Positions 2,927-43,473 of a stretch of DNA of 64,000 bases are shown piece by piece. The translations under genes were made by a program, and so were the position numbers. Source of the stretch: Shigella phage SH7. Under the pieces are notes generated by a model. That model saw nothing but the letters and a program-made list of their open reading frames with translations, was not told where the DNA came from and searched no databases. The stretch's first letter is position 1. Every line of letters starts with the position of its first letter. The stretch lies in sequence record KX828711; one strand, written 5' to 3'.

Positions 2927-3100
2927 TCCGCATAATACGCCATACAAAGGCTCATTAGAGCTTCTAAATTTTCTGTGCTTATATGTTATAGTTCCTTCTG
3001 CTTTAGCTTTATCATGAGACTCTTTAAAGCGTCTCATCATTTCTACTTTAGAGGAACGAATTTTATTATAATCTATTTCAGAAGTCTGGGTGTTCATCTT

Positions 3101-3307
3101 TCATAACTGCCACCATTTTTTGACTTGATAAGAATCAACCCACACTTTCATATTAGGGTCTGCTCTTACAATAGGAGGATTAACTTCTTTAATTGAACTA
3201 TCATGGTATTCTTTTTCAGAAATTTTCACACAAAGATGACCATTCAAAGATTCAGTAAATCCTGCATTAATTTTAAGACGCTTGAATTTTACGTGTGTAA
3301 GCATCAA
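3101..3307 (-). CDS. hypothetical small protein
   Basis: 68-aa ORF, overlaps the next ORF by 35 nt; weak support. Confidence 0.35.
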   Translation of the reverse strand: MMLTHVKFKRLKINAGFTESLNGHLCVKISEKEYHDSSIKEVNPPIVRADPNMKVWVDSYQVKKWWQL

Positions 3308-3590
3308 TCATATCCTCAATTTGCGATCTAGTAGTCTTCCAAAGAATACTGATGAGTTCATCGTTATATGGCTGTTTTAGAATATCCCGACTTTTCTTGA
3401 TAGCATATTCGTATTGAGCAAAATTATTATTTTCAGCTGCGATCTGAGCGTGCTTATAAAGACGATTCAGTTCGCGTTTGTTTTTAGACAATAACTTATT
3501 TGCTTTTCTTTCTGCTTCAAGACGGTTCTTTTCTTCAATAGAAGAAATAAGCTTTTCCACTTCATCATTAATTTCGGGTTTATCAGTCAT
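3273..3590 (-). CDS. hypothetical protein, predicted coiled coil
   Basis: 105 aa, charged helical sequence; tightly packed downstream of gene 55. Confidence 0.55.
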   Translation of the reverse strand: MTDKPEINDEVEKLISSIEEKNRLEAERKANKLLSKNKRELNRLYKHAQIAAENNNFAQYEYAIKKSRDILKQPYNDELISILWKTTRSQIEDMIDAYTRKIQAS

Positions 3591-3591
3591 A

Positions 3592-3810
3592 TTATTTCTC
3601 TAATATAAAATAAAAATCATCATCTGTTAAATGATACCGATAATTTAATTCTACACCATTAGATTTAAAAGCGGTATCATACGGATTTTCTGGATCAATA
3701 TCAATGTCAAGAGCTAAAACTTCCCTGAGATACATTTTAAGTAAATAGGGAATAGCTTCAACTTCAGGTATTTCTTCCAAGAATCCGGAGAGGTTAATCG
3801 TTAGCCTCAT
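3592..3810 (-). CDS. hypothetical small protein
   Basis: 72-aa ORF overlapping the gene 55 stop. Confidence 0.5.
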
Positions 3811-4351
3811 ATAAAAAATCCAAACTAGGAGAATCGTCTACAACACTTTTCTTTTCAGCCCCCGGTGTTCTATAGGTTGATTCTTCGTAATGCGTCATTT
3901 TATCGTAGATGTCTTGAATAAAAGTTTCATCTACTAACGCAACCATATCGTCGTCACGACTGTCATAGACATTGTGAACGAAGTAACTATATTTCTTTGC
4001 AACTTCCTTACGTTCTTTTTTAATACGTTGGACGAATGCATTAAAACAAGCTTGAGTTATATACGCATGTGGGTTTTTATATTTCGTTTCATCAAAATTA
4101 TGAAGCCCCTTAATAGAAGCTTCTATACCATCTGCAATCATTTCTTGTTTCCAAGACTGGGTGTATCCTGAAAAGTTGAAACGTTTAGATAAGCCTTCTG
4201 CAATAAGCATAATGGCTAATCCGATAGTATCATTTTGACGAACTACTTTATTTGGGTCTTTATTATTTGCTAATTCTGTTTTCCAATCAATAATAGCTTG
4301 TAAAAGCTCTTTATTGTTTACGTAATTATATTTAGGCTTAGTTTCTGACAT
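3794..4351 (-). CDS. 55: late-transcription sigma factor gp55
   Basis: 185 aa from [20 protein letters not shown] (third Met of the ORF); matches T4 gp55 in size and sequence as recalled. Confidence 0.9.
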
Positions 4352-14893: not shown

Positions 14894-15799
14894 TTAAGAT
14901 TTAAGTAAATCAACAATTTTAATTAATTTTTCACGCTCAGATTTAGCTTTACTACTCAGTCCAGATAGTCTGAAAATTTCATCATCATATTGTTGAATAG
15001 AAATATTCAGCTCTTCAATTTGCTTATTAAAATAATCAATTTGCTCAGAATGTTTTTCGTTACTACGAACTGGTACAGGTTTTGTAGGCAATTTAGTTGA
15101 ACTGGATTCATCCGGGCGATAAATTAAAATACAACTTGAACCAATAGGGCATTTTGCACCAGATGAATATTCTAATGTTCCGGCTTCTTTTAAAACTTCA
15201 AAAGCTAAACAGAGATGATGCCCCATATTAACATAATCTGTAGAGCGAGCTCTGATATAATAATCATCTCCACGAGTACTAAATTTAAAGCATTTAAGGT
15301 CTTCTGTATTATTGGTCTTAAAAATCATTTGTTTATCTAGACCTTTAGCTAATCGAGCGCCTAATGCTAATAATCGTCGTTGATTTTCCCACAAATCTGC
15401 GATCATTTGGTCAAATGATAATTTCGGCATTAGTCGGCCATAAAGGTCATATCCTTTATTATAATTACGAAGAATTTCACTCGCGTTAATACGAGACAAT
15501 GCTCCAATTTTATTAAGGGCTTTCATAATGCGATTAGATAAACTCATTCCAGACCCGTTTGTTCGCTGTAAATGTTTTTCTAATCCAAATCCAATATCAA
15601 CTTTAAATTTATCTAAAATTTCTGCATGAACATCTCTGTCAATAACATTCAAATCCAAAGTTGAGTTAAATCTATGAAAAAATTTATCTGGCTCTCCACG
15701 ACGAAATACAGTCCATTCATTCATCATTTTTTTATTAACTAAAGATTTAATTACTGCATTGACATTATTAATTACTACTGACATATTTTCCTCACTCAA
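14894..15799 (-). CDS. coiled-coil-tailed protein, paralog family member 4
   Basis: 301 aa; C-terminal coiled coil; weaker similarity to members 1-3. Confidence 0.6.
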   Translation of the reverse strand: MSEENMSVVINNVNAVIKSLVNKKMMNEWTVFRRGEPDKFFHRFNSTLDLNVIDRDVHAEILDKFKVDIGFGLEKHLQRTNGSGMSLSNRIMKALNKIGALSRINASEILRNYNKGYDLYGRLMPKLSFDQMIADLWENQRRLLALGARLAKGLDKQMIFKTNNTEDLKCFKFSTRGDDYYIRARSTDYVNMGHHLCLAFEVLKEAGTLEYSSGAKCPIGSSCILIYRPDESSSTKLPTKPVPVRSNEKHSEQIDYFNKQIEELNISIQQYDDEIFRLSGLSSKAKSEREKLIKIVDLLKS

Positions 15800-16200
15800 T
15801 TTTCAATTTTACTAAATACGCAGAATATGATGGAAAAGACTATATAAGCACCGCACACAGATTGAACTAATACCATTCCAAAGAACCAAACAATATTATC
15901 AAACAATGTCTGTTTTACGTCGAAAGGACGTAAACTTACAGTAATATTATCACCTTTTTCTATTGAAGAATACATCTCTGGGGAAATATATTCACTAAAT
16001 CTATAACCGTCTTTTAGTTCATATACGGCAATAAACGATAAACTAGACCCTTTTCCTTGTGTTCCCGTAATGGTATTAACTACAGTAACATCATAATCTT
16101 TATAATGCATATAATCATTAATTGCGTAATAACCATATGCAACTACTGCACATAAACAACATATCAATAAATTCAATCTTTTAATTACCAACTGTTTCAT
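15796..16200 (-). CDS. membrane protein (N- and C-terminal hydrophobic segments)
   Basis: 134 aa; hydrophobic N-terminus LLICCLCAVVAYGYYAI and C-terminal TM. Confidence 0.6.
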   Translation of the reverse strand: MKQLVIKRLNLLICCLCAVVAYGYYAINDYMHYKDYDVTVVNTITGTQGKGSSLSFIAVYELKDGYRFSEYISPEMYSSIEKGDNITVSLRPFDVKQTLFDNIVWFFGMVLVQSVCGAYIVFSIIFCVFSKIEN

Positions 16201-22151: not shown

Positions 22152-22538
22152 TTATTCGAGGGAAAGAAGATACTTACTCTGGTAAAACATTCCAGTAATA
22201 TCATCTATCGTGCTTTGGATGGCTGGAGGCATTTCTTTATAAATGCTGTTAGATTGGTCTAGTATGTGATCAATCATTTTAATTGTGTCGGTAGGAAGTT
22301 TACTGGCATCTGGAATTGAAGGTGTGTATTTTCTACCAGAATACCCCAAATATTGCTCACCAAATTTATCAATCAAATCTGGCAACTCGGAGAAAATAAA
22401 ATCGTATGCTTTGTGTCTAGCATAACTTTTAGTTTCAAAATGTGCAGAATGAAAATAAGCTTGTGCAGCCATTAATAAACCTAAGTATTCATCTGCCTTT
22501 GAAGGTTTTCCACTTTGTGAAAAGTCGCTGAATTTCAT
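22152..22538 (-). CDS. hypothetical protein
   Basis: 128-aa ORF overlapping the rI-like gene stop by 4 nt. Confidence 0.55.
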
Positions 22539-22828
22539 TCAGTCTCCAATTTAATGTTCATAATTCTAGCGTATGATTGTGCCATCTCCGCGCCTCGTTC
22601 TATACATTCAAAATCAGAAGAGCACGGGTCATTTTTATAGGTCGTTCTCATAAAACTATAGAATTGTTCAGACGATTCTACGCTTTTATTTTCAAAAAGC
22701 ATATAAACGTGCCTAATACCAGATTCCATAAATTTATCAAAATGAGGATCGACATTCGCTTCAATCGATGGAGATAAAACAAATGACAATCCTAGCATGG
22801 CAAATAGTGCCGTTGCTTTTAAGGCCAT
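22535..22828 (-). CDS. rI: lysis-inhibition antiholin RI-like periplasmic protein
   Basis: 97 aa with N-terminal signal/SAR-like segment ALFAMLGLSFVLSPSIEA; adjacent to tk as rI is in T4. Confidence 0.65.
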   Translation of the reverse strand: MALKATALFAMLGLSFVLSPSIEANVDPHFDKFMESGIRHVYMLFENKSVESSEQFYSFMRTTYKNDPCSSDFECIERGAEMAQSYARIMNIKLETE

Positions 22829-24428: not shown

Positions 24429-24646
24429 GTCACCTTTAAGCAGTATTCTTCTACATGCTGTTTACGACCTTTCTTATCAATAAAGGTATATTCAACGAAT
24501 GTTCCAATGTAGTCTTTATCTACATCATGTGGACTATTAATTGGACATTTAGTACGGCAAATGCGTTCCCATTGACGAATAATTACTGCCTTATTCTTTG
24601 GGTCATACGGATGTGGATAATGTATATTCATAATAACGGTTCCCAA
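24419..24646 (-). CDS. hypothetical small protein
   Basis: 75-aa ORF with Cys pair CRTKC. Confidence 0.5.
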   Translation of the reverse strand: MGTVIMNIHYPHPYDPKNKAVIIRQWERICRTKCPINSPHDVDKDYIGTFVEYTFIDKKGRKQHVEEYCLKVTWL

Positions 24647-25095
24647 TCAACAATCACAATTTCTAATTTAGAGGAATATGTATCTAAAATCCCCTCAATA
24701 ATATCCCAGTTCCCTTTACCTATGCCTGCTCCAATCCTAGGCATATAAATTGTAGGTTTAATCAGTTTATTTTCACCAAACTCATTTAATTCTAACATAC
24801 AATTCATTAAAGCGGAATACTCAAAATTTGGCCCTGGTTGAAATTGAGTATAAAGATTAAAGCAATACGCTTTATGAGTCCTAAAGTATTTTTCATAGAC
24901 TGAGTAAGAACCGAGTTTAGTTACATCACCCCATTCAGTCTGTAATTTATCAGCTTCCAAAATTTTAGGGAAAGCTTTGGTTAATTGACCTGCGACTCCA
25001 GCTTTCATCGCGTGAAAACAATTACATCCATGCGCAATATTTTTACCTTCAGCGAAAAGGGCGACAATATCGCCCTTGATATATTTTACAATCAT
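24628..25095 (-). CDS. macro-domain (ADP-ribose binding/processing) protein
   Basis: 155 aa; GDI..AHGCNCFHAMKAGVAG and IGAGIGKG blocks resemble macro-domain signatures. Confidence 0.55.
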   Translation of the reverse strand: MIVKYIKGDIVALFAEGKNIAHGCNCFHAMKAGVAGQLTKAFPKILEADKLQTEWGDVTKLGSYSVYEKYFRTHKAYCFNLYTQFQPGPNFEYSALMNCMLELNEFGENKLIKPTIYMPRIGAGIGKGNWDIIEGILDTYSSKLEIVIVDWEPLL

Positions 25096-25439
25096 CTAGT
25101 ACTCAATCCTCGATTATAAGAATCTACCAAACGGTCAACCATTGAATGACAAGCGGCTTTATCTTTCTCCTCCGCAACTGAACATTCTAAGGTATTCCAC
25201 TTTTTAGCATATCGTTTTAATAATGTATCGTTTTTGTATCTACTTGATTTATCTCTTTCTCCGTCTTTATATGCATATATTAATTTCTGTGCAAATTCAG
25301 CTTGACATGCTTTATTTTTCCCACAATAATCTGCCGCAGTGCGGTTTACATATTCTCTAATTTCAGTATATGATGTATCTGCTGATGCAGAAGCAGAAAA
25401 TGAAATTAATCCTATACATAAAACCAAAATTTTAGTCAT
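25092..25439 (-). CDS. secreted small protein (signal peptide)
   Basis: 115 aa; N-terminal signal peptide ending ASASA; 4 Cys. Confidence 0.6.
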   Translation of the reverse strand: MTKILVLCIGLISFSASASADTSYTEIREYVNRTAADYCGKNKACQAEFAQKLIYAYKDGERDKSSRYKNDTLLKRYAKKWNTLECSVAEEKDKAACHSMVDRLVDSYNRGLSTR

Positions 25440-25977
25440 TTACTATTTCCAAAAGTTTATTATTTTTAAGGTAATTAGCCTTTTCTAGGACTTCAGAAGC
25501 ATATTTAGAACCAGCTTTAACATTCCATCCCGAATTATAAGAGGATATTGCTTTTCTTATATCGCCCTTATGTATATTTAACCAATAAGAAAGTTCAATG
25601 TACGCCCAGGAAGCTGAATTGGATCGTTTATTCAACATTCTTTTTATTTCAGCATCGGTCATATTATAACCAAGTTCCTTAACTCTTGCTCGCATAGTAG
25701 GCAAATAATTTTGGAACATTCCGTAGGCGTGATGCTTTGGTTTAGATTTTAAATTAACTCCGCCAGAGCTTTCTTGCCATAAAATAGCAGCCATTATATG
25801 ACCTAATCCGCTCTTGTGGATATTTTTGTGTGTTTTATATTTTCCATCCTTAGAAAATTGTTCCCCGAATTGATACGCGTAACGCATGTTATCGAGTTGG
25901 ACATTACTGAAAGTATGCTCGGAGCTATGTGCCATCATTGAAATGGCCAATAGACCAGCGAGTAGTGCTTTTCTCAT
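25432..25977 (-). CDS. secreted lytic transglycosylase-like protein (SLT domain)
   Basis: 181 aa; signal peptide; family-1 motifs E-S (ILWQESSG), GMFQ, YNSG. Confidence 0.7.
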   Translation of the reverse strand: MRKALLAGLLAISMMAHSSEHTFSNVQLDNMRYAYQFGEQFSKDGKYKTHKNIHKSGLGHIMAAILWQESSGGVNLKSKPKHHAYGMFQNYLPTMRARVKELGYNMTDAEIKRMLNKRSNSASWAYIELSYWLNIHKGDIRKAISSYNSGWNVKAGSKYASEVLEKANYLKNNKLLEIVND

Positions 25978-25984
25978 GCTTACC

Positions 25985-26446
25985 TCATTGAGTTTTAATT
26001 ACTGCTTTAGAAGCCTTTCCTGGTAAACGACGACTGTTGATAATTGCCATCCTACATTGAAGTGACGGGTCTTTGAACTTCTCGTTAGGTTTACAAACTG
26101 TAAATCCAAGCCAAAGATTTCCATCTGTGATTTCTAAACGTCCAGGACGATATTCAACCCCATCAATAAAATCCTCGTCAATGTCAGGACGCGGAGGCAT
26201 TCTCAGGAATTCATTAACTTCTAAAACATGGTCTTTTATTTTATGGAATAATTCAAAAACGTATGTCTCATCAATCTCCCGTTGAATTGCACGATCAAGA
26301 AGATGTTGAGAATATTTTAGATGAAACGATGAGACCCCTGCTGCTTTTGATGCCTCACGAATCTCATTGTTAATTTGACGAAACTCCGACTCAAAGTGAC
26401 GACGAAGCTTATTTCGACGGATAAAAACTTCAGTGTTGATAGTCAT
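25985..26446 (-). CDS. regB: RegB site-specific endoribonuclease
   Basis: 153 aa; size and position match T4 RegB; sequence agrees with recollection. Confidence 0.8.
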   Translation of the reverse strand: MTINTEVFIRRNKLRRHFESEFRQINNEIREASKAAGVSSFHLKYSQHLLDRAIQREIDETYVFELFHKIKDHVLEVNEFLRMPPRPDIDEDFIDGVEYRPGRLEITDGNLWLGFTVCKPNEKFKDPSLQCRMAIINSRRLPGKASKAVIKTQ

Positions 26447-26473: not shown

Positions 26474-26503
26474 ATTATACCACAGTCAAGAGGAAAAGTA
26501 AAC
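26474..26503 (-). promoter_or_regulatory. early-type promoter (GTTTAC..TATAAT)
   Basis: Reverse complement GTTTACttttcctcttgactgtggTATAAT upstream of regB. Confidence 0.55.
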
Positions 26504-29535: not shown

Positions 29536-30504
<969 letters not shown>

Positions 30505-41171: not shown

Positions 41172-41762
41172 ATGCTCTTTACATTTTTTGATCCGATTGA
41201 ATATGCGGCCAAAACGGTGAATAAAAACGCGCCGACTATTCCTATGACAGATATTTTTAGAAACTATAAAGACTATTTTAAACGCGCTCTTGCGGGATAC
41301 CGCTTACGTACTTATTATATTAAAGGTTCACCACGCCCGGAAGAATTAGCAAATACTATATATGGAAATCCACAGTTGTATTGGGTTTTATTGATGTGTA
41401 ATGATAATTATGATCCGTATTATGGATGGATTACTTCGCAAGAAGCTGCTTATCAAGCATCTATACAAAAATACAAAAATGTAGGTGGAGACCAAATAGT
41501 ATATCATGTAAATGAGAACGGTGAAAAATTTTATAATTTAGTATCATATGATGATAATCCATATGTTTGGTATGACAAAGGTGATAAAGCTAGAAAATAT
41601 CCTCAATATGAAGGAGCACTTGCTGCGGTCGATACGTATGAAGCTGCTGTTCTTGAAAATGAAAAACTTCGTCAAATAAAAATAATAGCAAAATCAGACA
41701 TCAATTCATTTATGAACGACCTTATACGTATAATGGAGAAATCTTATGGAAATGATAAGTAA
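41172..41762 (+). CDS. 53: baseplate wedge protein gp53
   Basis: 196 aa; size and position as in T4. Confidence 0.85.
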   Translation: MLFTFFDPIEYAAKTVNKNAPTIPMTDIFRNYKDYFKRALAGYRLRTYYIKGSPRPEELANTIYGNPQLYWVLLMCNDNYDPYYGWITSQEAAYQASIQKYKNVGGDQIVYHVNENGEKFYNLVSYDDNPYVWYDKGDKARKYPQYEGALAAVDTYEAAVLENEKLRQIKIIAKSDINSFMNDLIRIMEKSYGNDK

Positions 41763-43473
41763 TAACCTTAATTGGTTTGTTGGTGTTGTTGAAGATAGAA
41801 TGGACCCATTAAAATTAGGTCGTGTTCGTGTTCGTGTTGTTGGTCTGCATCCACCTCAAAGAGCACAAGGTGATGTAATGGGTATTCCAACTGAAAAATT
41901 ACCATGGATGTCAGTTATTCAACCTATAACTTCTGCAGCAATGTCAGGAATTGGAGGTTCTGTTACTGGACCGGTAGAAGGAACTAGAGTTTATGGTCAT
42001 TTTTTAGACAAATGGAAAACTAACGGAATTGTCCTTGGCACGTATGGTGGAATAGTTCGCGAAAAACCGAATAGACTTGAAGGATTTTCTGACCCAACTG
42101 GACAGTATCCTAGACGTTTAGGAAATGATACTAACGTACTAAACCAAGGCGGAGAAGTAGGATATGATTCCTCTTCTAATATTATCCAAGATAGTAATCT
42201 AGACACCGCAATAAATCCCGATGATAGACCGTTATCAGAAATTCCAACTGATGATAATCCAAATATGTCAATGGCTGAAATGCTTCGCCGCGATGAAGGA
42301 TTAAGACTAAAAGTTTATTGGGATACCGAAGGATATCCGACAATTGGTATTGGTCATCTTATCATGAAGCAGCCAGTTCGTGATATGGCTCAAATTAATA
42401 AAGTTTTATCAAAACAAGTTGGTCGTGAAATTACTGGAAACCCAGGTTCTATTACAATGGAAGAGGCGACAGCTTTATTTGAGCGTGATTTGGCTGATAT
42501 GCAACGTGACATTAAATCACATTCTAAAGTAGGACCAGTCTGGCAAGCTGTTAACCGTTCTCGTCAAATGGCGTTAGAAAATATGGCATTTCAGATGGGT
42601 GTTGGTGGTGTAGCTAAATTTAACACAATGTTAACTGCTATGTTAGCCGGAGATTGGGAAAAAGCATATAAAGCCGGTCGTGATTCATTGTGGTATCAAC
42701 AAACAAAAGGCCGTGCATCCCGTGTTACTATGATTATTCTTACGGGAAATTTGGAATCATATGGTGTTGAAGTGAAAACCCCAGCTAGATCTCTATCAGC
42801 AATGGCTGCTACTGTAGCTAAATCTTCTGACCCTGCTGACCCTCCTATTCCAAATGACTCGAGAATTTTATTCAAAGAACCAGTTTCTTCATATAAAGGT
42901 GAATATCCATATGTTCACACAATGGAAACTGAAAGCGGTCATATTCAAGAATTTGATGATACCCCTGGGCAAGAACGATACAGATTAGTTCATCCGACAG
43001 GAACATATGAGGAAGTATCACCGTCAGGAAGAAGAACAAGAAAAACTGTTGATAATTTGTATGATATAACCAACGCTGATGGTAATTTTTTGGTAGCCGG
43101 TGATAAAAAGACTAACGTCGGTGGATCAGAAATTTATTACAACATGGATAATCGTCTTCACCAAATAGATGGAAGCAATACAATATTTGTACGTGGAGAC
43201 GAAACTAAGACGGTTGAAGGTAATGGAACTATCCTAGTTAAAGGTAATGTTACTATTATAGTTGAAGGCAATGCTGACATTACAGTTAAAGGAGATGCTA
43301 CCACTTTAGTTGAAGGTAATCAAACTAATACAGTAAATGGAAACCTTTCTTGGAAAGTTGCTGGGACAGTTGATTGGGACGTTGGTGGTGATTGGACAGA
43401 AAAAATGGCATCTATGAGTTCTATTTCATCTGGTCAATACACAATTGATGGATCGAGGATTGACATTGGCTAA
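41746..43473 (+). CDS. 5: baseplate hub and tail lysozyme gp5
   Basis: 575 aa; central lysozyme domain (MAEMLRRDEGLRLKVYWDTEGYPTIGIGHL) and C-terminal VxGxxxxx beta-helix repeats. Confidence 0.95.
   Translation: MEMISNNLNWFVGVVEDRMDPLKLGRVRVRVVGLHPPQRAQGDVMGIPTEKLPWMSVIQPITSAAMSGIGGSVTGPVEGTRVYGHFLDKWKTNGIVLGTYGGIVREKPNRLEGFSDPTGQYPRRLGNDTNVLNQGGEVGYDSSSNIIQDSNLDTAINPDDRPLSEIPTDDNPNMSMAEMLRRDEGLRLKVYWDTEGYPTIGIGHLIMKQPVRDMAQINKVLSKQVGREITGNPGSITMEEATALFERDLADMQRDIKSHSKVGPVWQAVNRSRQMALENMAFQMGVGGVAKFNTMLTAMLAGDWEKAYKAGRDSLWYQQTKGRASRVTMIILTGNLESYGVEVKTPARSLSAMAATVAKSSDPADPPIPNDSRILFKEPVSSYKGEYPYVHTMETESGHIQEFDDTPGQERYRLVHPTGTYEEVSPSGRRTRKTVDNLYDITNADGNFLVAGDKKTNVGGSEIYYNMDNRLHQIDGSNTIFVRGDETKTVEGNGTILVKGNVTIIVEGNADITVKGDATTLVEGNQTNTVNGNLSWKVAGTVDWDVGGDWTEKMASMSSISSGQYTIDGSRIDIG

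Follow-up and report, generated by a model that had tools for sequence, protein, structure and literature searches.

A candidate exported murein enzyme and a putative periplasmic partner encoded by the early vs.1–vs gene pair of T4-like phages

[quoted passage not shown] The question is raised by a pair of open reading frames (ORFs) in Shigella phage SH7 (sequence record KX828711), of which a stretch of 64,000 nucleotides, hereafter the window, was analysed. A preliminary description had placed two overlapping ORFs at positions 25092 to 25977 and had read them as early genes for two secreted proteins, one a lytic transglycosylase. Both ORFs are present exactly there, on the minus strand, with an overlap of 8 nt. 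The original observation on the gene pair is therefore confirmed, and the interpretation that accompanied it is partly supported. The window is that of a Tequatrovirus, and the pair is T4 vs.1 and vs, long-catalogued genes whose identity the description had missed, as it had the published SLT similarity of vs.1 and the ValRS annotation of vs.

The gene pair and its expression

25432..25977, minus strand: vs.1 coding sequence (181 aa; T4 ORF 61.4), predicted exported GH23/SLT-like murein enzyme (ORF, homology, model)
25092..25439, minus strand: vs coding sequence (115 aa; T4 ORF 60.9), predicted exported four-helix, four-cysteine protein (ORF, phrog_1256, model)
25432..25439, minus strand: vs.1 stop/vs start overlap of 8 nt (…AAATGACTAA…), putative translational-coupling junction (sequence)

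The nucleotide identity of the region to T4, T6 and JK38 is 98.4–98.9%. Vs.1 is identical to the product of T4 ORF 61.4 (100% amino acid identity) and matches phrog_600 (2e-68). Vs matches phrog_1256, the T4 Vs family, over its full length (1.7e-39), which makes it a member of that family, and its closest database cluster is P0001, at 98% amino acid identity. The 115-aa ORF is thus the orthologue of T4 Vs (the tau factor, as annotated) and bears the annotation 'valyl-tRNA synthetase modifier'. The vs ATG (25439-25437) starts 8 nt ahead of the end of the vs.1 stop codon (25434-25432), and the vs stop shares 4 nt (ATGA) with the ATG of the next gene. In the T6 record AP018814, the seemingly truncated vs.1 results from an 'NN' in the record, with no frameshift, and its 'rI antiholin' and 'tail assembly protein' annotations are propagated errors.

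26474..26502, minus strand: sigma-70-type early promoter-like site upstream of regB, TTTACT-17-TATAAT with TG (10/12 consensus matches)
25982..25986, minus strand: Shine–Dalgarno GAGGT, separated by 4 nt from the downstream vs.1 ATG (5 to the A) (sequence)

Early expression, also claimed in the preliminary description, is borne out by the sigma-70-like site upstream of regB and by the transcript class of both genes in T4. The predicted site, a consensus match only, can drive regB-vs.1-vs-tk.4 and lies at the position equivalent to a potential −10 for ORF 61.9 in the T4 record. GAGGT coincides in place with a potential ribosome-binding site annotated in T4 record X04567. T4 vs.1 and vs fall into the early class by RNA and the middle class by protein, and mass spectrometry detected their two products at similar intensities (PMC9697503 supplement).

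Predicted export of Vs.1 and Vs

25924..25977, minus strand: vs.1 signal peptide, aa 1-18, MRKALLAGLLAISMMAHS, with predicted cleavage between AHS and S (n/h/c layout)
25380..25439, minus strand: vs signal peptide, aa 1-20, MTKILVLCIGLISFSASASA, with predicted cleavage between ASA and D (n/h/c layout, pLDDT)

Both N termini contain a basic n-region, an uncharged hydrophobic h-region and a small-x-small site, with MRKALLAGLLAISMMAHS followed by SEH in Vs.1 and MTKILVLCIGLISFSASASA followed by DTS in Vs. The predicted mature proteins begin with DTSYTEIR (Vs) and with SEHTFSNVQLDNMR or SSEHTF… (Vs.1). Signal-peptide calls were made with a simple home-made heuristic, not with SignalP. This heuristic was positive for all 44 distinct members of the Vs family and for 75 of 76 Vs.1-family members, and for only 4 of the 77 ORFs of at least 90 aa in the window; besides Vs.1 and Vs, these are the antiholin RI, known to be periplasmic, and one unknown ORF. 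Across the relatives of both proteins, the N-terminal sequence drifts but retains its hydrophobicity and cleavage motif. The signal peptides that had been proposed for both proteins therefore hold up, in their n/h/c layout as well as among relatives.

Additional features of Vs point in the same direction. Residues 1-20 are unstructured in its AlphaFold2 model (pLDDT <50), five relatives carry the lipobox LSGC at the position of the signal peptide, and the sequence contains no internal methionine before residue 100, leaving no start for a leaderless form. When full-length N-His Vs was produced in the E. coli cytoplasm, it was insoluble (PMC8076793). T4 Vs was ruled out as a lipoprotein because LVLC is not a lipobox, and a SAR anchor was ruled out for both proteins, the hydrophobic cores of which are short and followed by cleavage sites. 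Vs.1 and Vs would thus leave the cytoplasm through Sec and have their signal peptides removed. As far as prediction goes, Vs is not placed in the cytoplasm (signal peptide or lipobox, four cysteines, unstructured N terminus, no internal start).

Similarity of Vs.1 to GH23 enzymes

25462..25803, minus strand: predicted vs.1 GH23 catalytic core, approximately aa 59-172, motifs WQES, GMFQ and YNSG (Pfam SLT, invariant columns, model helices H59-70 to H154-172)
25771..25773, minus strand: Glu69 codon, predicted catalytic acid of the E-S motif (sequence; invariant in 30 homologues)

The family-1 lytic transglycosylase motifs that had been recognized in Vs.1 are supported at the level of both the domain and the residue. 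The Pfam SLT model (PF01464) matches aa 61-154 with 25.1 bits, above its gathering cutoff of 21.3 (E 1.4e-5), and several Vs.1 homologues carry a precomputed PF01464 match. Invariant in 30 homologues are E69-S70 (WQES), G86, F88 and Q89 (GMFQ), and Y147, N148 and G150 (YNSG). An hhalign comparison of the Vs.1 family with the catalytic domain of Slt70, weak overall (E 0.13) and used for motif register only, pairs WQES…GMFQ with RQES…GLMQ and E69 with the Glu of RQES, which is the catalytic E478.

The Vs.1 model (pLDDT 88.4) exhibits a goose-lysozyme-like helical fold. Its top Foldseek matches in the PDB are MltD, a GH23 chitinase, Slt, Slt70, goose-type lysozyme and phi6 P5, with probabilities of 0.9–1.0, TM scores of ~0.45–0.56 and E-values from 6.5e-3. 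A single-sequence search of Vs.1 against solved structures returned nothing useful, and a profile search against PDB sequences gave goose-type lysozyme as the sole match (E 0.44). No BLAST similarity was found to lysozyme e (29536..30030) or gp5 (41746..43473), in agreement with the earlier claim that Vs.1 is distinct from both. Similar to E. coli Slt70 and P. aeruginosa MltD and Slt, Vs.1 combines a signal peptide, and hence a predicted periplasmic location, with a goose-lysozyme-like all-helical fold, and a single Glu in E-S is followed by GLMQ-like and AYNxG-like motifs. In contrast to those enzymes, Vs.1 is minimal (mature form 163 aa, ~18.8 kDa, pI ~9.6), having no superhelical, LysM or lipid-anchor modules; it is also very divergent (25 bits in Pfam; Foldseek TM ~0.5), phage-encoded and made early.

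These results suggest that Vs.1 is probably a divergent, exported GH23 (family-1, Slt-like) enzyme that cuts the cell wall. GH23 also includes hydrolases, namely goose-type lysozymes and chitinases, and Vs.1 might be one of these, or a non-catalytic murein binder, in place of a lytic transglycosylase. The Foldseek E-values of the GH23 chitinase and goose-type lysozymes, similar to those of the transglycosylases, are compatible with that assignment, as is the sole PDB sequence match. However, E-S, G-x-F-Q and Y-N-x-G fit the family-1 transglycosylase pattern, the Glu is invariant, and the best structural matches are MltD and Slt, such that we consider a hydrolase or binder quite improbable. The SLT similarity of vs.1 is itself on record, in a passage of Nolan 2006 that cites Miller 2003 (PMC1524935).

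A four-helix model for Vs

25305..25325, minus strand: Cys39…Cys45 loop (CGKNKAC) at the helix 1–helix 2 turn, first predicted disulfide (codons, conservation, model)
25149..25184, minus strand: Cys86…Cys97 segment at the helix 3–helix 4 turn, second predicted disulfide (conservation, model)

Vs was modelled (pLDDT 84.6) as a four-helix bundle with helices at residues 22-39, 43-63, 70-86 and 91-112. All four cysteines lie in the mature part, are invariant across full-length homologues and flank both helical hairpins in the model, an arrangement that suggests the disulfides Cys39–Cys45 and Cys86–Cys97. Removal of the signal peptide would reduce the 13.1-kDa precursor to 11.0 kDa, and the pI values of its relatives span 4.4 to 9.0.

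Outside its own family, no relative of Vs emerged from structure comparison or from Pfam. A single-sequence search against solved structures yielded nothing useful, and scanning Vs together with 18 relatives against NCBIfam and Pfam produced scattered chance matches only; in precomputed tables, PF26829 is carried by 13/13 database relatives. A profile search of 1.84 billion protein representatives found no relatives beyond a small family (8 representatives), which was seen here in phage contigs only. Neither in sequence nor in fold was homology detected to known periplasmic inhibitors of lysozyme-fold enzymes or to other known envelope effectors.

Phenotypes of vs.1 and vs in T4

The preliminary description had suggested that the enzyme may remodel the cell wall during infection or act in superinfection or lysis timing; the functional data on the pair are those from T4. 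There, both genes are non-essential in LB, with transposon-insertion counts of 26.6 and 22.6 for the vs.1/vs pair compared with 290 for tk.4, 179 for regB and 652 for vs.3 (bioRxiv 10.1101/2025.11.20.689424). The counts for the pair are approximately ten-fold below those of these flanking genes. In M9-glucose, vs shows the strongest depletion in that preprint (log2FC −2.19), vs.1 shows a log2FC of −0.87 (p 0.0055, adjusted p 0.155), and plaque formation by a vs knockout is impaired in minimal medium (bioRxiv 10.1101/2025.11.20.689424). Insertions in vs.1 may be polar on vs.

Vs.1 differs in several respects from other phage-encoded GH23/SLT domains. Such domains also occur in phi6 P5, PRD1 P7 and the N-domain of T7 gp16, and Vs.1 has weak matches to PHROG families of lytic tail and internal virion proteins. 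Those enzymes are virion-borne and act at entry, whereas Vs.1 has a Sec signal, is transcribed early and is dispensable, which together suggest that it acts from inside the periplasm of the infected cell.

The same data bear on whether Vs.1 could serve as an accessory endolysin, exported to weaken the wall before holin triggering and so to set the speed of lysis, as signal-peptide and SAR endolysins do, with Vs as its antagonist until lysis. Consistent with such a role are the predicted exported GH23 domain, the impaired plaques of the vs knockout in minimal medium and, in Felixounavirus HY02, a Vs.1-like gene that adjoins rIIA/rIIB near an Rz-like spanin gene. Yet vs.1 is transcribed early, not late, and its product has a hydrophobic core of ~13 residues followed by a cleavage site, unlike a SAR anchor. 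T4, moreover, already makes an endolysin, E (29536..30030), and unlike vs.1, which is dispensable, the genes e and t and those for the spanin show strong depletion of insertions. Such an endolysin role therefore appears very unlikely to us.

Conserved linkage of vs.1 and vs

The proposal of a co-expressed secreted partner, put forward in the preliminary description, is strengthened by the near-universal adjacency of vs.1 and vs in T4-like phages. A Vs-type gene lies directly 3′ of vs.1, at a spacing of −8 to +3 nt, in 49/50 related viral loci, among them loci of Acinetobacter, Proteus and Morganella phages; neither regB nor tk.4 could be detected in those of Acinetobacter phages. Reciprocally, vs.1 is present in 27/27 loci found from the Vs side, a scan that used a T4-type Vs alignment and thus covers that subtype only. 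Vs.1 relatives occur in ~2,000 phage records, where the next gene, if named, is the 'valyl-tRNA synthetase modifier'.

The two proteins might nevertheless be periplasmic and independent, with Vs.1 trimming murein and Vs directed at a host envelope protein, a defence sensor or, as Spackle is, the tail lysozyme of a superinfecting phage. Vs evolves approximately twice as fast as Vs.1 (mean distances 0.66 and 0.36), and its two subtypes are distributed in a mosaic manner that is incongruent with the Vs.1 tree, as would be expected of a protein facing a variable outside partner; this incongruence argues against a tightly co-evolving interface. Moreover, no Vs-like neighbour was found beside the Vs.1-like secreted enzymes of Felixounavirus, Kuttervirus and a Klebsiella phage, which suggests that the enzyme does not intrinsically need Vs, and in M9 the loss of vs is more severe than that of vs.1. 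Against independent roles stand the adjacency and coupling seen from both sides, the similar LB insertion counts of the two genes and the lack of similarity of Vs to Spackle or another known envelope effector. On balance, we regard separate functions as unlikely, and we favour a joint role for the pair.

The valyl-tRNA synthetase modifier label

Predicted export of Vs conflicts with a label that is 50 years old. If Vs is exported, its annotation as a cytoplasmic ValRS modifier needs re-examination: a ValRS-binding factor must be cytoplasmic, whereas Vs and all of its relatives have export signals and paired cysteines, and their genes are locked to that of a secreted enzyme. It might be that Vs is nonetheless a cytoplasmic ValRS-binding factor, that its N terminus is unused for export or the protein only partly exported, and that adjacency to vs.1 reflects operon packing. 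All annotated records name Vs as a ValRS modifier. Marchin, Neidhardt and co-workers reportedly found, in the 1970s, a phage factor of ~10 kDa bound to ValRS, and this size, also that of the purified tau factor, is near the 11.0 kDa of mature Vs. The depletion of vs in minimal medium, the strongest of all, also fits a function in translation under amino-acid limitation, and insertions in vs.1 could be polar on vs.

Several observations argue against this role. Signal peptides are kept in every Vs relative inspected despite sequence drift, with a lipobox in some; the four cysteines are invariant and sit at the ends of helical hairpins; and the pI of Vs varies widely among relatives. Adjacency to the secreted enzyme extends to the loci of Acinetobacter phages, in which no regB or tk.4 was detected. 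A mass of 10–11 kDa fits the processed form better than it does the 13.1-kDa precursor, and processed Vs is by that token the exported form. The 1986 T4 record lists ORF 60.9 as anonymous, and literature text searches, which did not reach the older primary papers, found no evidence linking vs mutations to ORF 60.9 and no source for the vs assignment. We consider it somewhat unlikely that Vs is such a cytoplasmic ValRS-binding factor. Even a correct ValRS annotation would leave the conserved export signal and cysteines to be explained.

Discussion

The best overall explanation of these observations is that Vs.1 is an exported murein enzyme and Vs its co-expressed periplasmic partner or regulator; we judge it about as likely as not. 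In this mechanism, vs.1 and vs would be transcribed early from the regB-vs.1-vs-tk.4 unit and translationally coupled through their 8-nt overlap, and both products would be exported by Sec, with removal of their signal peptides. Mature Vs.1 would use Glu69 to cut the glycan strands of the host sacculus from the periplasmic side, most probably as a lytic transglycosylase. Mature Vs (~11 kDa) would be a bundle of four helices in the periplasm, held together by two disulfides; it would work with Vs.1, most probably by binding the enzyme and restraining or directing it. Under such restraint, the wall could be remodelled in the latent period while the cell is kept from lysing too soon. The present analysis and the published T4 data establish the identity of the genes, their motifs and predicted folds, the conservation of export signals and cysteines, the strict synteny, the expression classes and the insertion counts; from these we infer export and cleavage, the disulfides, the activity of Vs.1, any contact between it and Vs, and the direction of regulation.

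Precedents exist for control of this kind. T4 Spackle (gp61.3) is a small, helical, disulfide-containing periplasmic protein with a signal peptide that binds and inhibits a lysozyme-fold enzyme, and its relationship to the gp5 tail lysozyme is, by analogy, the kind that we propose for Vs and Vs.1. No similarity in sequence or fold was detected between Spackle and Vs, and the target of Spackle is brought in by a superinfecting virion, while the genes vs.1 and vs share a transcript. Ivy and MliC/PliC are likewise periplasmic proteins that control lysozyme-fold enzymes; Ivy, which has also been reported to inhibit MltB, uses a short disulfide-closed loop, CKPHDC. Vs similarly has a conserved loop that a disulfide could close, C-x2-N-x2-C (CGKNKAC).

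A stronger form of this explanation holds that Vs is not, or not only, a cytoplasmic ValRS modifier, being instead a disulfide-stapled periplasmic regulator of Vs.1, and that the pair forms an early module for wall remodelling, conserved among T4-like phages. We offer it tentatively, as a possibility that we doubt more than we believe. If it is true, loss of the module, not an effect on ValRS, would explain the depletion of vs in minimal medium, and the true tau factor would be encoded elsewhere, or modification of ValRS would arise on contact after cell breakage.

T4 is the reference phage, and its labels have been copied into thousands of genomes. If Vs is exported, the ValRS label is wrong or incomplete, and the need for vs in minimal medium would point to envelope biology and not to translation. 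To our knowledge, no wall-modifying function has been assigned in T4 for the latent period. The proposed module, if it exists, would place a conserved, early, phage-made murein enzyme and its partner at work on the cell wall during that time.

Identity and layout of the gene pair

The two overlapping genes proposed in the preliminary description correspond, coordinate for coordinate, to two minus-strand ORFs that share 8 nt. They and their flanking genes are as follows:

25985..26446: regB, flanking gene (Pfam REGB_T4, 8.8e-69)
25432..25977, minus strand: vs.1, 181-aa ORF (ORF listing)
25092..25439, minus strand: vs, 115-aa ORF (ORF listing)
24628..25095, minus strand: tk.4, flanking gene downstream of vs (Pfam Macro domain)

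The 8-nt overlap runs from the vs ATG to the last base of the vs.1 stop codon, within …GTA AAT GAC TAA; the vs stop codon overlaps the ATG of tk.4 by 4 nt, and a GAGGT Shine–Dalgarno sequence lies 4 nt upstream of the vs.1 ATG. The DNA around the pair is 98.4-98.9% identical to that of T4, T6, RB18, AR1 and JK38, and the window is therefore from a Tequatrovirus; together with the flanking regB and tk.4, this match identifies the ORFs as T4 vs.1 and vs. The 1986 T4 record X04567 contains a protein, 'ORF 61.4', with 100% identity to the 181-aa product, and lists the 115-aa ORF anonymously as 'ORF 60.9'. The T4 tk.4 orthologue has been named AdfM, an anti-DarTG2 macrodomain, in a 2025 preprint, and the unit containing regB, vs.1-vs and tk.4/AdfM thus brings together functions in RNA processing, the envelope and anti-defence. 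The best sigma-70 consensus match of a 6-kb scan (25302-25330, plus strand; TTGACA-17-AATAAT, 11/12) lies antisense within vs, and it may be a chance occurrence in AT-rich DNA because the number of promoter-like sites in that scan equals the shuffled expectation.

Vs.1 as a divergent GH23 protein

In an alignment of 30 Vs.1 homologues (identity down to 41%), the invariant residues include E69 (WQES), G86/F88/Q89 (GMFQ) and Y147/N148/G150 (YNSG), which at the sequence level is the family-1 lytic-transglycosylase pattern. Vs.1 also just passes the Pfam SLT model (25.1 bits; curated threshold 21.3), in agreement with the motifs first noticed, and matches phrog_600 ('unknown function', 2e-68). A profile alignment with the Slt70 catalytic domain, weak overall (E 0.13), placed WQES…GMFQ on RQES…GLMQ and E69 on Glu478, the catalytic residue of Slt70. 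The AlphaFold2 model of Vs.1 is confident and all-helical (pLDDT 88.4), and a Foldseek search of the PDB with it returned Pseudomonas aeruginosa MltD, a GH23 chitinase, Slt, Slt70, goose-type lysozyme and the phi6 P5 lysin, with probabilities up to 1.0, modest E-values (from 6.5e-3) and TM scores of ~0.5. Sequence-only searches gave no useful PDB match, so Vs.1 is a divergent GH23 member. The family is always strongly basic (pI 8.3-10). As had been proposed, Vs.1 is distinct from lysozyme e (29536..30030) and gp5 (41746..43473), to neither of which it has any similarity. Its SLT similarity is already known: Nolan et al. 2006 reported it for six T4-like phages and, for T4, credited it to Miller et al. 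2003 (PMC1524935).

Export signals

The N-termini of Vs.1, MRKALLAGLLAISMMAHS/SEH, and Vs, MTKILVLCIGLISFSASASA/DTS (slash, predicted cleavage), each comprise a basic n-region, an uncharged hydrophobic core and a small-x-small site, consistent with the signal peptides previously predicted for both. With a simple heuristic for export signals, 44/44 distinct Vs-family and 75/76 Vs.1-family sequences were positive, the sole negative being N-terminally truncated. Among the window ORFs of at least 90 aa, which served as the control, only 4/77 were positive, namely Vs.1, Vs and the following:

22535..22828: RI, the periplasmic antiholin (phrog 'lysis inhibition')
15796-16200, minus strand: 134-aa ORF with a signal- or anchor-like N-terminus, MKQLVIKRLNLLICCLCAVVAYGYY… (phrog_2547, function unknown)

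Among relatives of both proteins, the N-terminal sequence drifts freely while hydrophobicity and the cleavage motif are kept. We consider it likely that Vs.1 and Vs are both exported and that Vs.1 acts on murein as a GH23 enzyme.

One clade of Vs homologues, from five of the viral loci compared (L033, L034, L036, L037 and L048; about 3549-3875 within the locus), begins MKKLFVLL…LSGC and has the lipobox LSGC instead; these homologues would thus be lipoproteins, not soluble periplasmic proteins. A weak BFVD fold match to a 'Lipoprotein' of Cronobacter phage A24 was also obtained.

The Vs protein and its annotation

Vs matches phrog_1256 ('valyl tRNA synthetase modifier', 1.7e-39), and profile searching of 1.84 billion representative proteins turned up no more than 8 members of its family. 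In its structural model, residues 1-20 are unstructured (pLDDT <50) and the remainder (pLDDT >90) folds as four helices (22-39, 43-63, 70-86 and 91-112); the turn of the first hairpin lies between Cys39 and Cys45, that of the second between Cys86 and Cys97. No full-length relative lacks any of these cysteines, even at 19-27% identity, where divergence is very strong; the obvious reading is that they form two stapling disulfides, which implies an oxidising compartment. Residues 2 to 99 of Vs contain no Met, which leaves no internal AUG from which a leaderless isoform could start. Full-length N-His 'Valyl' formed inclusion bodies in a structural-genomics survey (PMC8076793), as expected of a cytoplasmically made precursor with a signal peptide and four cysteines.

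By every sequence criterion applied, then, the Vs family looks extracytoplasmic, which conflicts with its annotation as a valyl-tRNA synthetase (ValRS) modifier. The classical phage factor tau was purified at ~10 kDa and modified ValRS in vitro, a size that fits processed Vs (computed at 11.0 kDa; precursor, 13.1 kDa). The assignment of the ORF to vs is possibly wrong; the literature searched, which lacked the papers defining tau and vs, did not reveal where ORF 60.9 was first equated with vs. Alternatively, the Vs–ValRS association might form after cell breakage, or Vs might have two locations. That Vs is not the ValRS modifier in vivo we consider possible, if rather unlikely.

Labels vary between records. 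The T6 record AP018814.1 (L001, 947-2563) labels small ORFs 'rI antiholin' (twice) and 'tail assembly protein', which are propagated mis-annotations; its apparent 231-nt vs.1 fragment was rejected as a consequence of 'NN' in the sequence. In other records, vs.1 is labelled 'endoribonuclease' and vs 'valyl-tRNA synthetase'. Shortened vs genes were seen at L018:3541-3798 (85 aa, first cysteine pair lost) and L036:3549-3746 (65 aa, early end), and two 85-aa entries in BFVD (IME340 and vB_EcoM_005) bear the name 'Valyl-tRNA synthetase modifier'; natural vs loss-of-function variants seem to be in circulation.

Pairing and evolution of vs.1 and vs

Six-frame ORFs of 50 viral contigs encoding a Vs.1 relative were scanned with HMMs, and a Vs-family gene was found directly downstream of vs.1 on the same strand, at -8 to +3 nt, in 47 of them. 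Two further loci, L042 and L045, carry at this position a divergent ORF with the architecture of Vs (signal peptide, then C-x5-6-C … C-x8-10-C … Y-x2-G-L), bringing the count to 49/50. The two genes form a module, coupled and almost universally adjacent. The exception, L052 (vs.1 at 2929-3441; Vs.1 31% identical), has a 160-nt gap followed by a tk.4-like macro-domain gene (3601-4152), as though vs had been lost from the locus or had never entered it. In the reciprocal scan, which used the T4-type Vs alignment, 27/27 loci fell on contigs that had turned up in the Vs.1-based search. Acinetobacter phages carry the pair in loci that gave no regB or tk.4 hit, and Proteus and Morganella phages carry it with no detected tk.4. 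No fused proteins were found.

Vs was found here in T4-like phages only. Secreted Vs.1-like proteins (~30% identity) also occur beyond them, in further families of large virulent phages:

L053:1501-2049: Vs.1-like GH23 gene, Escherichia phage HY02 (Felixounavirus)
L054:1453-2070: Vs.1-like GH23 gene, Kuttervirus SenALZ1
L055:1309-1950: Vs.1-like GH23 gene, Klebsiella phage RCIP0006 (174 kb)

These proteins have retained a signal peptide together with the ES/FQ/YNAG motifs and, unlike T4 Vs.1, have cysteines in the mature part. The HY02 gene directly follows rIIA/rIIB, close to an Rz-like spanin gene. No Vs-like neighbour was found beside the three genes; the enzyme can therefore occur without Vs.

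Vs evolves at roughly twice the rate of Vs.1 (mean distance 0.66 versus 0.36), and its pI ranges from 4.4 to 9.0. It has two subtypes: one, the 'T4-type', ends SMVDRLVDSYNRGL, and the other, apparently ancestral, is shorter and mostly acidic. They are not congruent with the Vs.1 tree but form a mosaic over it (L003-L051), the ancestral type sitting, for example, inside a T4-type clade at L030 and L031, which suggests recombinational swapping.

Published T4 data and a possible joint function

Early expression, as first proposed, agrees with time-resolved omics of T4, in which vs.1 and vs are both classed as early RNA and middle protein, and both proteins were detected at intensities within one order of each other (PMC9697503). 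A transposon-sequencing preprint (bioRxiv 10.1101/2025.11.20.689424) found both genes non-essential in LB, with insertion counts about ten-fold below those of their neighbours:

Mean insertion counts in liquid LB (bioRxiv 10.1101/2025.11.20.689424)
vs: 26.6
vs.1: 22.6
tk.4: 290
regB: 179
vs.3: 652

In M9-glucose, vs was the most strongly depleted T4 gene (log2FC -2.19, adjusted p 0) and vs.1 also fell (-0.87, p 0.0055, adjusted p 0.155); a vs knockout made poor plaques on M9, which the authors interpret through the ValRS annotation (same preprint). The common defect fits a joint function, although the vs.1 effect may be polarity on vs. The stronger defect of vs loss alone fits restraint of Vs.1 by Vs and equally a separate role for Vs. 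Insertions in regB, just upstream, rose between LB and M9 (log2FC +1.17, p 0.049, not significant after correction; Data S8 of that preprint), possibly because they change how vs.1 and vs are expressed.

We propose that Vs.1 and Vs would both be exported and processed, and that Vs.1, from the early or middle stage of infection, would cut glycan strands in the host sacculus. Vs, predicted to be helical and stapled by disulfides, would bind Vs.1 or its substrate and so restrain or direct the enzyme, allowing the wall to be remodelled with no premature lysis. We give about even chances to the two acting together in the periplasm; that Vs is specifically a restraint is a more doubtful proposition. 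Small periplasmic proteins control lysozyme-fold enzymes in T4 Spackle with gp5 and in Ivy with MltB. Vs resembles neither Spackle nor Ivy in fold, so the precedent is one of analogy, not membership. We would read the pair as a system of an already-known kind, in which a lysozyme-fold enzyme of the periplasm is accompanied there by a small partner protein.

The observation in the preliminary description is confirmed. Its interpretation is partly supported, having missed that these are known T4 genes with a published lytic-transglycosylase similarity. What is added is evidence for Vs as an exported protein locked to vs.1, which bears on the recent M9 phenotype.
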